From an uncultured Desulfobacter sp. (GTDB lineage Bacteria > Desulfobacterota > Desulfobacteria > Desulfobacterales > Desulfobacteraceae): DNA of 64,000 bases. Position numbers and translations under genes: made by a program. The stretch covers positions 6,272,001-6,336,000 of the forward strand of contig OY762069.1 in NCBI GenBank assembly GCA_963665095.1. Reading direction: 5' to 3'. The notes beneath the pieces are model-generated. The model was not told the origin of the DNA. It worked only from the letters and a program-made list of their open reading frames with translations, and searched no databases. Shown piece by piece: positions 49,989 through 55,425 of this stretch. How positions within the stretch are numbered: the first letter of the stretch is position 1; each line of letters begins with the position of its first letter.

Positions 49989-50341
49989 TATCTGTTGGGC
50001 CGGCCCGTGAAAGTTCCCGGGCCATCCGCCTTTTTTCGAGTTGTCACACAATCGGTTTCAGGCCATTAATCTGCTGCCAGATATAGAAATATTATTATTT
50101 AAAGTAAATATTTTTTTTGAAATGAAAAATCTCATGCTGCTGTGACGGTGAAGTTATTTGGTCCGGATTCTTTTTCCACATTGATAAGGTTAGGAAAAAT
50201 ATTTTATATCTTCCGGGGTATTTCAAAATTTGAAATATCCCGGATGGGGAGGTTCCCATGGTGGATAGATGTTATGCGGAAAAGATTCAAATTTCCTTTG
50301 AGTTATGGCAGAAAAAGAAAAGACATTTTAAGGAGAGAATT

Positions 50342-51598
50342 ATGGAAAATGATATTTTAATATATAATAGTACCCTTTTAACCATGGATGAGGGCCTGCC
50401 TGTGGTTGAAAACGGGTTTGTTCATATTTCAGACGGCAGGATTGCTGACTTTGGACCGGCAGGGCCGGACCTGGAAAAGCAAGTTTTACAGGGCAGGCGT
50501 ATAGATGCCCGGGGCGGCATTATCATGCCCGGTCTTGTGAACGGGCATACCCATGCCCCCATGTCCATGTTCCGGGGGCTGGCCGATGACCTGCCCCTGG
50601 ATGTCTGGCTCAACGAACATATTTTTCCGGCCGAGGCAACCCAGGTGACCCCGGAATCGGTGGCGGCCTGGACCGCCCACTCCTGCCGGGAGATGCTTGC
50701 CGGCGGCATCACCACCTGCTGTGACGGGTATTTTCTGGAAGCATATGCTGCGAAAGCTATGGCGGACTCCGGCATCCGGGCCGTGGCCGGTCAGGGGGTG
50801 ATTGATTTCCCTGCCCCGGGAGTCCCGGACCCGACAGGGAATATAAATCATGCAAAGGATTTTATTGAAAAAAGCGGCCGGCTCTCCTCCCGGGTAACCC
50901 CGGCTGTCTTCTGCCACTCCCCTTATACCTGTTCTAAAAAGACCCTGGTGGCAGGCAAGGCCCTGGCCCGAAACACAGGGGTGCTGTTCCAGGTCCATGT
51001 TGCGGAAACACAGGCTGAATCCGGCATGATCAAAGAAAATGACGGCCTGTCCGTGGTGGCCTATCTTGACAGTTTAGGCATCCTTGATGCAGACACGCTT
51101 CTGGTTCACAGCGTCTGGGTGGATCAATCTGATATTGAAATAATTCAGAAGCGGGGCTGTGGTGTGATTCACTGCCCGGAATCCAACATGAAGCTGGCTT
51201 CCGGCGTGGCCCCGGTACCGGACATGGTGGATGCCGGTGTGACCGTGGGGCTTGGTACGGACGGCTGCGCCTCCAACAATGACCAGGATATGTTTTCGGA
51301 GATGGGCACAGCCGCAAAACTGCATAAGGTGATCCGCATGGATCCCTGCGTCATGGATGCACGCACCTGTCTGAAAATGGCGACCATTGACGGAGCAAAG
51401 GCGCTTGGACTGGGGAAGGTGACCGGTTCCATCTGCAGAGGCAAGGCTGCGGATATCATTGTGGTGGATACGGCCGGACTTCACATGACGCCCATGCATG
51501 ATCCTTACTCCGCGCTGGTCTATGCGGCAAGGGCCTCGGATGTATCCTGGGTGCTGGTGGACGGTCAGGTGCGGGTGGAGAACAAATGCCTTGTATGA
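50342..51598 (+). CDS. Amidohydrolase, MTA/SAH deaminase (MtaD) family
   Basis: PGLVNGHTH, HSPYT, HVAET, HCPESNMKLASG and GTDGCASNN; AGGAG upstream. Confidence 0.85.
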   Translation: MENDILIYNSTLLTMDEGLPVVENGFVHISDGRIADFGPAGPDLEKQVLQGRRIDARGGIIMPGLVNGHTHAPMSMFRGLADDLPLDVWLNEHIFPAEATQVTPESVAAWTAHSCREMLAGGITTCCDGYFLEAYAAKAMADSGIRAVAGQGVIDFPAPGVPDPTGNINHAKDFIEKSGRLSSRVTPAVFCHSPYTCSKKTLVAGKALARNTGVLFQVHVAETQAESGMIKENDGLSVVAYLDSLGILDADTLLVHSVWVDQSDIEIIQKRGCGVIHCPESNMKLASGVAPVPDMVDAGVTVGLGTDGCASNNDQDMFSEMGTAAKLHKVIRMDPCVMDARTCLKMATIDGAKALGLGKVTGSICRGKAADIIVVDTAGLHMTPMHDPYSALVYAARASDVSWVLVDGQVRVENKCLV

Positions 51599-51665: not shown

Positions 51666-51706
51666 TAAAAAAGCCGACTGTCTGCCCCAGGGGCAGACAG
51701 TCGGCT
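51666..51706 (-). terminator. Strong intrinsic terminator
   Basis: AGCCGACTGTCTGCCCC/GGGGCAGACAGTCGGCT stem with a T-run on the minus strand. Confidence 0.85.
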
Positions 51707-51811
51707 GGATAATGTCTATCAGCAAAGTTTCAGGATCAGGTGTCAGATCAGATTCAGGTTCAGTATAAGAGCATTCAGCGTCAGCATCAACATCAACCAT
51801 TATCCAAATGT
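51666..51811 (-). ncRNA. Candidate small RNA with repeated CUGA motifs
   Basis: GGATAATG/CATTATCC closing stem enclosing 9 CTGA and 2 TTGA, followed directly by the terminator. Possible promoter TTGACT (51842-51847) with an AT-rich -10. Confidence 0.5.
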
Positions 51812-51891
51812 TAGAAACTATATATTATTCGGTAGAATCCAAGTCAATAATAAATTTGTGAATGATTGTAAAAAAACTATTCGGCTTTGTA

Positions 51892-52893
51892 TCATGGGAT
51901 TCCTTCTTCCTTTTTATTTGCTGTTGTATTGGTTCCTGCCACGGCAGGGATGCCAAAGGATTTAAAATAATCTGCCAGGCGCTGGGTCTCCTGATGTATG
52001 GTTTCTGCATCCGGCATGTTTTTATCTGCCATGGGGTAGGGCCGGCCCAGGGCTTTATATTTTTCAAGCCCCAGTGGGCGGTAGGGCAGCAGCTGTAGCT
52101 GGATGATGCGGTTGGCAAGTGTCTCCGTGATATACTTGGCTGTAGCGCTGACATTGGTCCTGTCATTGTTTACCCCGGGAATCACGGGGATGCGGATGAT
52201 CAGCGGTACCCGGTTCTGTGCCAGAAAAGCAATGTTGGATACAATCTGTTTGTTATCCACCCCGGTAAAGGTCCTGTGCTGCACAGGATCCATATGCTTG
52301 ATATCTGTGATGATCAGGTCTGCAGTGGGAAAGACCTTTTCAAGGATCTTCTGGGGACAGTGAAGGGCGGTTTCAAGGCAGGTGTGGATGCCTTCACCCC
52401 GACAGGCAGTGAGCAGTGCCCGGGTGAATTCCCACTGGACCAGGGCTTCGCCCCCGGACACCGTGACCCCGCCACCGGATTTTTCATAGAACTCCCGGTC
52501 TTTGACAATAACGGCCATGACCTCATCCACGGTCATTTTTTTGCCGAAAAAAGAGACCGCATTGCCCGGGCAGGCATCTGCACATTCAAAACACCCGGTG
52601 CAAAGATCCTGGTTGATGCCTGATATCTGGCCGTTGGTATGCACCAGGGCGTTAGCCGGACAGGCCGGGATGCAGAATCCGCATTTATCTGTTCCCAGAC
52701 ACCGGTCCGGGTGGATGGCGGGTTCGGGTTTCAGGGCCTGGCTTTCCGGATTGGAACACCAGAGGCAGCGCAGGGGACATCCTTTAAGGAACACCTCGGT
52801 GCGGATACCTGGGCCGTCATGGATGGTAAAGTGCTGGATGTTGAAAACAATCCCCTGCCTGGATGGGCCCGTCCGGGCCGGTGCGTCCGGCAT
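51892..52893 (-). CDS. Glycyl-radical enzyme activating enzyme (radical SAM with ferredoxin insert)
   Basis: HDGPGIRT..FLKGCPLRCLWCSNPE, two extra Cys clusters and GGVTVSGGE. Confidence 0.95.
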   Translation of the reverse strand: MPDAPARTGPSRQGIVFNIQHFTIHDGPGIRTEVFLKGCPLRCLWCSNPESQALKPEPAIHPDRCLGTDKCGFCIPACPANALVHTNGQISGINQDLCTGCFECADACPGNAVSFFGKKMTVDEVMAVIVKDREFYEKSGGGVTVSGGEALVQWEFTRALLTACRGEGIHTCLETALHCPQKILEKVFPTADLIITDIKHMDPVQHRTFTGVDNKQIVSNIAFLAQNRVPLIIRIPVIPGVNNDRTNVSATAKYITETLANRIIQLQLLPYRPLGLEKYKALGRPYPMADKNMPDAETIHQETQRLADYFKSFGIPAVAGTNTTANKKEEGIP

Positions 52894-52896
52894 GGG

Positions 52897-55425
52897 TTAG
52901 AAATCAAGCTCCGTGCGGCCGATGATGTCATACTGCAGCGGCTTGCTCAACTCCACAAAATAGGCGGAGTAGCCTGCCACCCGCACCACCAGGTGCCGGT
53001 ACTTTTCCGGGTGCTTCAGTGCCTCCAGAAGGGTCTCACGGCTCACAATATTGAACTGGGAGTGCATGCCTTTCCGGTCAAAGTACACGTCAATGAGCGA
53101 GATCAGGTTATCCCGCCCGGCGTCACCGGATACGCAGGCAGGGGTGAATTTCCAGTTAAGAAGGGTGCCGTTGCCGGCCCGGATGTGGTCCAGCTTGGTC
53201 ACGGATTTGGCAATGGCTGTGGGGCCTTTGATGTCGTGGGACCCGCCGTCGGTATGCACGGCCCCTAGACAGTCAGACACCGGTTCCAGGGCCTTTCGCC
53301 CCTCCACCGAGGCCCATTGCAGCAAACCTATGGCCACGTTGGCGGATACCGAATAAACCCCTGGCAGGTAGATGCCGCCCCGGGCGTTGCGCCGGCCTTC
53401 AATGTGCATGCAATAGGTGTCTGTGGCAAACCGGGCCAGCTCGTCTGCATAATCATCGTCATTGCCGTAATGGGGCACCTTGTCTGAGTTGACCAGGGTG
53501 TAAAGGGCTTCCGATCCCTGCCAGTTGTTCTCGCAGGCCTCCAGGAGATCCGCTCCTGTGAACCGTTTTTTGTCAAACACCAGGTGTTTGATGGTGGAAA
53601 GCCCGTCCGCCACCGTGCCCACGCCCACCGCCTGGGGACCGGTGAAGTTGTATACGGCACCGCCGGCGGTAACATCTCTTCCCCTTTCAATGCAGTCGTC
53701 CATGATGGCGGACAAAAAAGGCAGGGGTTTGAGTTCCTGGTGGACCTGGTCCATAAGTTCCGTAGCACTGACCATCTGGTCGGTCCAGTATTTCATCTGT
53801 TTGTTATAGGCGGCTTTTACCTGGTCAAAAGAGGTGAACTCCCTGAGGCTGCCTGTGGCAGGACCTAAACGAAGTCCTCTGCCCCCGCATTCATCCCAGC
53901 GTATGCAATGGGCGCCGCAGCCGATGCACCGGCCGTCATTGATGGCAAGTTCCAGTACCTTGGCAATGGAGAAATAGGCAGAGTCGTGCCAGCCGTACTC
54001 CTTGCCCCCGGCGTCAATCTCCACGCACCCCACCACATGGTAGTTACGGGCGTCTTCCAGGCTCCGGCCGGCTTTCCGGGAGGCCGGGATGGCCGCCTGG
54101 TCATTGAATAGCTTGGGCTGGCCCGTGCCGATGCGGATAACATTCACCGCCTTTACCTTGAACTGCCAGGGTGTGTTTTCATGGAACCGCACGGCCAGCC
54201 AGGGAACGCCGATGCGCAGATGGGCGTCGGCATCCAGGACCATGTAGCTTAAGTCATTGGTGGCGTCATTGCCATCCTTGTCCACACCGCCCACGGTGAG
54301 ACTGTCCCCGCCCATGCCGCGGCCGGAGTTGGCGATCACCGTGAGCCGGTCCCGGAGCTTGGTCCACCACAGGTCCTTGATAAAGGAGATTTCAATGAGC
54401 TCCTGGATCTCTTCCCTGGTTGCCCGGCCGGCGTTGATGTCGTTTTTGTAAAAGGGATACATGTACTGGTCAAAGCGGCCGAATGATACCGAGTGCCCGT
54501 TGGATTCAACCAGGATCAGGGTGGTGGCCATGTACCACAGCTGCAGGGCCTGGCGGAAGGTTTTCGGCGGCGTTTCAGCCACATGGGTGCATGTTTCGCT
54601 GATGGTGACAAGCTCTTTTTTCCAGTCCGGGTCTGATGTCTTTTCCGCCATTTCACGGGCAAGTTTGGCATACCGCAAAAGATAGTTGGTGGCCGCATCC
54701 AGCACAATCAACTCGGCCTGGTAAAAGGTCCGCTTTTTCAAGTTTTCCGGAAGCGTTACATCCAGTTCCATCATTTTTTTGCGAACTTGGGCCTTAATAC
54801 CGGAAAAGCCAAGTTCAAACAGTTTTTCATAATTGCCCTGGGTATGTCCCACCCCGCCGAAAAGGTACAAGTTGAGCAGGAACAGCCCCTTGCCCAGGTT
54901 GGAACCCTTAACCTCGTCCGGGCTCATCCTGGCCCGTACCGACTCCTCAACGGTTTTGCCCTTCCAGAAACCGGCAATGCCGGCAAGCGCTTTCTCACTT
55001 CGTTTCGAGATATAATAGTTGTCATGGAGCCGGTCCTTCCATGGATGGTTTTTCATCTCATCCATGATCCAGTCATAGGAGAACTCCGGGAAGATGGGGG
55101 CAGATTTCATAGGGGCGGCCATCTGGCCGACGATCAGTTCGTCTTTTTGGATGGAGATGGCCACGTTTTCAAGCACATGGGCAAAGGCCCGGGCACATTT
55201 GATAAGCTGGGGCTTGTCCCTGTGCATCTTATAAGCTTCAGTCACGAGGCAGGCCCGCTGGTGATCCACGGTGAATTCGGTGTCCAGCACAAATTTTCTG
55301 AACCGGTTGACCCGCTCAAAAGGAGAGGGCGCTTCATTCATCCCGGATTCCCCCACCGGCCAGACCCTGTCAAACGGTTCAATCCCGCAGGGCATCTCCT
55401 GCTTGTCTAATTCAGGTACTCCCAT
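52897..55425 (-). CDS. Glycyl radical enzyme (PFL2/dehydratase-lyase type, substrate unknown)
   Basis: Cys loop VVGCVE, Gly loop VRVAGYSAYF, GRFDQY and YGNDD. ATG 55425 follows GGAGG. Confidence 0.93.
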   Translation of the reverse strand: MGVPELDKQEMPCGIEPFDRVWPVGESGMNEAPSPFERVNRFRKFVLDTEFTVDHQRACLVTEAYKMHRDKPQLIKCARAFAHVLENVAISIQKDELIVGQMAAPMKSAPIFPEFSYDWIMDEMKNHPWKDRLHDNYYISKRSEKALAGIAGFWKGKTVEESVRARMSPDEVKGSNLGKGLFLLNLYLFGGVGHTQGNYEKLFELGFSGIKAQVRKKMMELDVTLPENLKKRTFYQAELIVLDAATNYLLRYAKLAREMAEKTSDPDWKKELVTISETCTHVAETPPKTFRQALQLWYMATTLILVESNGHSVSFGRFDQYMYPFYKNDINAGRATREEIQELIEISFIKDLWWTKLRDRLTVIANSGRGMGGDSLTVGGVDKDGNDATNDLSYMVLDADAHLRIGVPWLAVRFHENTPWQFKVKAVNVIRIGTGQPKLFNDQAAIPASRKAGRSLEDARNYHVVGCVEIDAGGKEYGWHDSAYFSIAKVLELAINDGRCIGCGAHCIRWDECGGRGLRLGPATGSLREFTSFDQVKAAYNKQMKYWTDQMVSATELMDQVHQELKPLPFLSAIMDDCIERGRDVTAGGAVYNFTGPQAVGVGTVADGLSTIKHLVFDKKRFTGADLLEACENNWQGSEALYTLVNSDKVPHYGNDDDYADELARFATDTYCMHIEGRRNARGGIYLPGVYSVSANVAIGLLQWASVEGRKALEPVSDCLGAVHTDGGSHDIKGPTAIAKSVTKLDHIRAGNGTLLNWKFTPACVSGDAGRDNLISLIDVYFDRKGMHSQFNIVSRETLLEALKHPEKYRHLVVRVAGYSAYFVELSKPLQYDIIGRTELDF

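Follow-up and report, generated by a model that had tools for sequence, protein, structure and literature searches.

The window, the whole 64,000-nt stretch of an uncultured Desulfobacter genome analyzed here, encodes on its minus strand a predicted small RNA (sRNA) of ~146 nt (51667-51812) with 11 YUGA motifs in a single stem-closed loop. We somewhat favor the reading that it is a free-standing sRNA acting as a CsrB-type YUGA decoy, likely descended from a family-wide base-pairing sRNA linked to tungsten/molybdenum (W/Mo). The closing stem would display a loop that is for the most part unpaired and has 4-11 YUGA motifs, to which several copies of an RNA-binding protein would bind, and the loop would titrate this protein off its targets as CsrB does CsrA. 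The ancestral loop would have base-paired with ribosome-binding sites, under a W/Mo-linked promoter. Taken together, the comparisons indicate that the RNA is a real, family-restricted sRNA under selection, and that its YUGA loop is a derived state within a family-wide frame.

Anatomy and surroundings of the predicted RNA

On the minus strand, GGATAATG (51805-51798) pairs with CATTATCC (51714-51707) in an 8-bp stem around an 83-nt loop; the 5' arm (GGAUAAUG, 51798-51805) and the 3' arm (CAUUAUCC, 51707-51714) are assigned by folding and by homologue comparison. The loop contains nine CTGA and two TTGA, which start at 51796, 51790, 51784, 51778, 51763, 51757, 51751, 51746, 51739, 51733, and 51722, in steps of 6, 6, 6, 15, 6, 6, 5, 7, 6, and 11 nt. 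Re-reading the strand confirmed the original prediction of such a cluster within a stem, including a spacing of mostly 5-7 nt (8 of the 10 steps, the others being 15 and 11). The motifs are arranged as a first array of four copies with a 6-nt period (51775-51796) and a second array of seven copies in steps of 5-11 nt (51719-51763). Between them lies a partly conserved 10-nt linker, UGCUCUUAUA (51764-51773). An intrinsic terminator (51667-51706) with a U-run directly follows the stem, as had been predicted, with a hairpin (51706-51672) of 16 rather than 17 bp and a 3-nt loop.

The region folds with a z of -5.5, of which the terminator supplies much of the energy. Closing stem and terminator are present in both the MFE and the centroid structure, and in the latter the loop forms no hairpin of its own. 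In 90-nt stretches on both strands of the 6.9-Mb genome, this is the densest YUGA cluster with 9 CTGA (runner-up, 7), and its 11 YTGA are unique (runner-up, 9). Base shuffles of the loop (n = 20,000) gave at most 6 YTGA, and dinucleotide shuffles reached 11 in 1 of 5,000. The covariance model R1 matches the genome at contig positions 6323666-6323812 (E 6.5e-14), and no second copy of the YUGA RNA was found in this genome. Contigs aligned to the region bear out its DNA sequence.

The -35 box TTGACT lies at 51842-51847 on the minus strand, is preceded by AT-rich sequence, and is kept in homologues. It is followed after 17 bp by a probable -10 box, TATATA (51819-51824, minus strand), whose role is suggested by conservation. 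The earlier call of TTGACT with an AT-rich -10 thus holds for the -35 box, whereas the -10 box is incomplete: it lacks the last T of TATAAT, reads TATAGA or TATACA in homologues, and was not reported by a consensus promoter scan. Because of this, the promoter call rests on conservation, all 15 YUGA-type homologues having TTGACTTG and, 17 bp downstream of it, TATA(G/T/C)A, and we infer a transcript start near 51812 (±3 nt). Just before the -35 box, at 51848-51870 (minus strand), is ATCATTCACAA, which occurs in several, not all, of the YUGA-type genomes and which we take to resemble half a Rex box.

The convergent neighbor is a TRZ/ATZ (MtaD-like) amidohydrolase gene (50258-51598, plus strand) that marks the locus of both loop types described below. 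Upstream and on the same strand lies a glycyl-radical activase gene (51892-52893), which is found in this position in this genome only and from which read-through into the RNA is possible. The activase gene adjoins a glycyl-radical enzyme gene (52897-55425, minus strand) whose product scores 1117 bits against the NCBIfam cut-off of 1000 for (2S)-3-sulfopropanediol dehydratase, placing a gene of this type and its activase immediately upstream of the RNA.

Homologues and selection on the YUGA motif

A BLAST search of 40 relatives identified the YUGA-type (A-type) RNA in 13 of 24 genus genomes and the covariance model added one. With the window's own copy, 15 of the 25 genus genomes thus have a single A-type RNA, with 4-11 motifs per loop, so that homologues keeping the motif exist and the original notion of a free-standing RNA of ~145 nt with a reiterated motif gains comparative support. 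Flanking genes vary among these homologues, which marks the putative sRNA as a unit independent of its neighbors. Promoter boxes, closing stem, and terminator are kept in 15 of 15, with the 5' arm of the terminator missing from one (G010). The A-type loop consists of two YUGANN arrays and the 10-nt linker, and 54 of the 79 steps between motifs measure 6 nt and 14 measure 14 nt. The closing stem has a predicted pairing probability of 0.86-0.99 in 14 of the 15, and UGA is predicted to be unpaired at 0.64 on average. Seven base pairs of this stem are invariant in 12 of 12 aligned A-type RNAs and eight in 18 of 18 aligned RNAs of the second, B-type form; as the seven A-type pairs never vary, they are uninformative on pairing. 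Two-sided, compensatory changes occur in A-type RNAs at the eighth stem pair (G-C, A-U, U-A, or G-U in 13 of 15) and at three terminator pairs.

Counted by parsimony on the rpoB tree, UGA columns underwent 0.61 changes per column (18 columns) and spacer NN columns 3.0 (10 columns), the latter at the neutral level of four-fold sites (2.82). The difference between UGA and spacers is significant when columns are treated as independent (Mann-Whitney p = 3e-5). Three rows of the loop alignment were adjusted in phase by one base, and a row (G024) whose last unit is out of phase inflates the UGA count. UGA is conserved even though this genome shares just 52-55% third-codon-position identity with the other A genomes. 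Inner units are near-invariant and the outermost one decays (A is present in unit +3 in 9 of 15); a close strain has changed CUGA to GUGA at 51763. Conserved UGA, neutral spacers, and variable copy number point to a protein-binding array rather than a pairing seed, which would put constraint on the spacers as well, or a peptide. The protein sponge of the original prediction therefore has the mutation pattern to be expected of it, but its YUGA loop is derived, most other members of the family with this frame having a B-type loop.

The same rates bear on the suggestion that the array is without function, produced by slippage as a gene or terminator decays, or that it acts as DNA, its repeats being bound by a transcription factor. 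Copy number does vary, and such hexamers arise readily in coding DNA. Neutral decay, however, would strike all six unit positions alike, whereas the rate of change at UGA is five times lower than in the spacers; all 15 homologues retain promoter boxes and closing stem, and an enclosing stem with covarying pairs is nothing a DNA site would need. The RNA has been lost from some members of the clade; we nevertheless regard this explanation as quite improbable. Four members of the YUGA clade are without the RNA, two of them being incomplete genomes. In one 100%-complete member (G008) the loop is gone and terminator remnants flank the amidohydrolase gene on either side; in another, 95% complete, neither an RNA match nor the amidohydrolase was found. 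The YUGA RNA is dispensable.

Translation of the array into a short peptide, acidic and then Leu/Ile-rich, would make YUGA a by-product of GAN and YTG codons. One frame does run through both arrays in 11 of the 15 homologues, reading acidic and then hydrophobic over 18-40 residues, and several changes are synonymous in it. Yet the rates are flat across codon positions (1.43, 1.20, and 1.53 changes, against 0.26, 0.11, and 2.22 in rpoB), the four-fold third positions are the very ones conserved, loop lengths span all three classes modulo 3, and there is no space for a ribosome-binding site. The ATG noted originally is present in 2 of 15 homologues only, both of them frame-shifted or stopped early, and the acidic MVDVDAD reading frame once considered as the product is not conserved. 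A peptide thus seems most improbable.

The linker, whose sequence UGCUCUUAUA we take to be similar to phage and Aquifex boxA sequences, raises the alternative that the RNA is a NusB-S10 decoy mimicking boxA. The boxA likeness of the linker is weak. It does retain the boxA positions that PMC3177189 gives as critical (G2, C5, and pyrimidine 6), with G2 in 14 of 15 homologues, C5 in 15 of 15, and U6 in 15 of 15, and the boxA of the family's rRNA leader, GATCTTTGAAAA, itself contains two TTGA. Against this, the linker has A at position 8, reported to weaken binding (PMC3177189), and from position 8 on it differs from the consensus GYTCTTTAANA (PMC5725501), and also from the host's own GATCTTTGA. 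The repeats are not boxA-like, the seed of the B-type form has U at position 2, and the boxA of the rRNA leader does not differ between A and B genomes. We consider such a decoy very doubtful.

Searches beyond the genus gave little. An Rfam search in E-value mode of the window region and six homologue loci gave chance hairpin-type matches only, in agreement with the original statement that the RNA could be matched to no described family. A loose pattern scan of genome contigs gave at least 120 loci, and about 50 of the 80 listed were an unrelated Collinsella hairpin; this is a recurrent long intergenic hairpin with arms GAGAGTGGATAATCTCCC and GGGAGATTATCCACTCTC, often followed by a second hairpin. 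Viral contigs contained no match to the B pattern and two to the A pattern, both without stem or terminator. An order-wide search of 150 genomes outside the family with a second model, R2, returned one weak match without the frame. A YUGA pattern applied phylum-wide to 400 genomes, in a strict form that misses the window's own copy, gave 22 rows in 15 other genomes; most of the 16 loci inspected lay inside long reading frames and none had this stem and terminator. The literature searched, mostly as abstracts and with PMC11109978 taken without its supplement, holds no description of the A or the B form.

The anti-Shine-Dalgarno-like form and the origin of the YUGA loop

Model R1, although built on A-type RNAs only, also detects the frame in other genomes of the family, where it encloses the B-type loop. 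These RNAs share the stem, have a terminator related to that of the A type and in most copies a -35 box TTGACA, and contain AGGA, a small hairpin, and CCCAUCUCCUUGGC in their loop. Of 151 family genomes, 68, spread over 9 of 19 genera, matched model R2; 13 of these are A-type at the same coordinates and two weak matches (E 0.036) were excluded, leaving ~53 B-type genomes, two genomes holding two B copies. Among 50 B loci, 46 were parsed, and CTCCTT was present in 46 of 46, the full 13-mer in 41, with 0-2 YTGA each. Conversely, CTCCTT is absent from all 15 A loops, and no second, B-type copy was found in the A genomes. The B loop is near-invariant, exposed, and anti-Shine-Dalgarno (anti-SD)-like, and is predicted to block ribosome-binding sites. 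In the B RNA of one genus, an additional 5' hairpin (CGGGA...UCCCG) follows the promoter and precedes the closing stem.

Within the genus, 8 of 15 A copies and 6 of 6 B copies share the convergent amidohydrolase, which identifies them as orthologues. On an rpoB tree rooted on two other genera, from which two B genomes without full rpoB were omitted, a single clade with a support of 1.00 holds all A genomes. It lies within the B lineages, the window's genome is the first to branch off in it, and its sister group has a support of 0.48. Alignments of A to B loops reach z values of only -0.8 to 2.2, which do not separate gradual change from replacement. The promoter spacer is altered in the A clade, and, within the genus, a close TupA-like paralogue was found in 0 of 15 A genomes against 3 of the 6 with the B form.

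Evidence for a W/Mo link comes from 87 B loci (50 from genomes and 37 from metagenomes, partly redundant). Fifteen of them have a gene for a TupA-like (tungstate-binding) protein of tungstate uptake 50-60 nt upstream on the same strand; the protein is a relative of PDB 3lr1 and scores under the NCBIfam TupA cut-off. Some stand-alone B copies retain a relic of the tupA stop region, and stand-alone B RNAs and tupA-like genes have a TTGACAAATAC/AT(T/A)ACC-type promoter in common. Upstream of the -35 box, tupA-like promoters also carry GGTTAG/GGTTAT-type direct repeats, with TTACC/TAACC in the spacer, and the repeats are possibly the site of a TaoR-like regulator. A gene encoding HTH_17 and PBP-like domains, which is the TaoR architecture according to PMC11980592, lies downstream in 21 of the 87 loci (26 ORF pieces), and one locus has the order RNA, taoR, and Mo-storage gene. 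A and B genomes are not told apart by whether they have the TaoR-like regulator. A role of the RNA as an attenuator of taoR was ruled out, since taoR has its own promoter.

From this, the B form would be a W/Mo-linked sRNA born from a 3' UTR and pairing with ribosome-binding sites, and it is a candidate for a previously undescribed W/Mo-sparing sRNA of Desulfobacteraceae in sulfate reducers, which depend on W/Mo enzymes. A conserved target of the B seed was not found in the own-genome duplex scan, the Mo-storage gene, or the taoR leaders. The latter are ordinary, and for the Mo-storage gene (a PDB 2ogx relative), which in the window's genome resembled a target of the B seed but was rejected as one, the extended match is not conserved and an ordinary SD remains.

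The A form might be a base-pairing sRNA still, in which UGCUCUUAUA serves as a shortened anti-SD seed and the arrays keep the linker unpaired or recruit a chaperone. The CUCUU of the linker resembles the CUCCUU of the B seed and changes slowly (1.0 changes per column vs 2.8 at neutral sites), the reconstructed ancestor has an anti-SD-like loop, and the linker is possibly a relic of the ancestral seed. However, 4 of its 10 columns change two to three times, and the neutral spacers exclude long pairing across the arrays. Among 5,706 predicted start regions, a duplex scan gave top matches that were long and bulged and had no functional theme. Pairing would moreover have to account for selection on the exact letters UGA, which mere opening of the loop would not impose. 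We therefore hold continued pairing to be unlikely.

A W/Mo role links to selenium enzymes such as formate dehydrogenase, and UGA might then be a codon mimic for tRNA-Sec or release factor 2 that ties the ancestral W/Mo role to selenoproteins. The genome does encode tRNA-Sec and the ancestral form is W/Mo-linked, but release factor 2 reads codons only on the ribosome, and the C favored ahead of UGA would add nothing to the pairing with the anticodon loop. We give this idea hardly any credence.

We thus return to the decoy: the history that we lean toward starts from an ancestral W/Mo-linked sRNA that probably base-paired and whose loop later turned into a decoy for a protein. A more specific version, that one sRNA gene switched mechanism in place, from an anti-SD, W/Mo-sparing RNA derived from the tupA-like 3' UTR to a YUGA sponge for a regulator other than CsrA and Hfq, with promoter position, stem, and terminator kept, is plausible but goes further than we would wager. 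If true, the switch would define a protein-sponge system of a new kind for sulfate reducers, and elsewhere in the family there would be a W/Mo counterpart of the iron-sparing sRNAs. As both loops occur in one orthologous frame within one genus, a change of mechanism is testable via loop swaps.

Candidate partner proteins and known systems

Cold-shock-domain proteins, which have a footprint of ~6-7 nt, are our tentative first choice as partner of the YUGA loop, held with low confidence. They number 4-8 per genome. The next candidate, the single RRM protein present in 23 of 25 genus genomes, is a doubtful one. Leaders of cold-shock and RRM genes contain no YUGA arrays; those of the cold-shock genes of the genus have 5' UTR blocks conserved across paralogues and species. 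One CsrA of the type with a long C-terminus is found in 22 of 25 genus genomes, and neither CsrA nor RRM proteins show an evident A- or B-specific change. Hfq (PF17209) was found in none of five genomes, with positive controls, and an L7Ae-family protein (K-turn or box C/D ligand) in none of four good genomes, a fifth giving a marginal match inside a 679-aa frame. Among the mRNA leaders of the 5,706 predicted genes in the window's own genome, none stands out for YUGA (best, 6). The leader with these 6 YTGA, one of which is its -35 box, is at contig position ~6854620 on the minus strand and belongs to what, by its N-terminus, is presumably ffh. In bacteria in which no Hfq was found, a UGA decoy would be a sign of a post-transcriptional regulator not yet described, for which the RNA could serve as bait.

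The well-studied bacterial protein sponges are, to our knowledge, tied to CsrA or Hfq. CrcZ/CrcY, which are Hfq-Crc sponges with reiterated single-stranded motifs, resemble the YUGA RNA in this reiteration, but their AANAANAA motif is present in 0 of 15 A loops. TRAP and HutP arrays (NAG/UAG repeats) are similar in their short invariant triplets, free spacers, and fixed period, which for TRAP is 5 nt; these are cis leaders, whereas the YUGA RNA is without a conserved downstream gene on its own strand.

Other systems resemble the B form. RsaE/RoxS are C-rich, Hfq-independent anti-SD sRNAs, and FsrA, IsrR, and RyhB are metal-sparing; the exposed CUCCUU seed and metal-uptake promoter of the B form recall these RNAs. 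In contrast to FsrA, IsrR, and RyhB, its metal link is to W/Mo and not to iron, and the window's A form has lost CUCCUU. The Moco/Wco riboswitch has a W/Mo gene context, shared by the B form only, but the frame has no Rfam match and often lacks a downstream gene on its own strand, a convergent gene closing 32 of the 87 B loci. The gcsH motif, reported from Desulfobacteraceae in PMC11109978, comes from the same bacterial family and is a different motif.

The closest likeness in design is to CsrB, CsrC, RsmY, and RsmZ, which are likewise free-standing sRNAs with a terminator and many short motifs in variable number (PMC13407953). Unlike CsrB and RsmZ, the RNA has YUGA instead of GGA (GGA is absent from 12 of 15 A loops and occurs once in each of the other 3), and its motifs stand in one open loop with a 6-nt period where those RNAs present GGA (ANGGA) in hairpin loops. 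The host CsrA, too, carries a long extension at its C-terminus, as is typical of CsrA under FliW control (PMC13407953). With protein-sequestering sRNAs in general, it shares a promoter of its own, as judged by conservation, a terminator, independence of its flanks, a reiterated motif under selection, free spacers, and a predicted accessible loop. Most likely, it works like a CsrB-type decoy while being a member of neither the CsrB nor the CrcZ family, nor of any other in Rfam.
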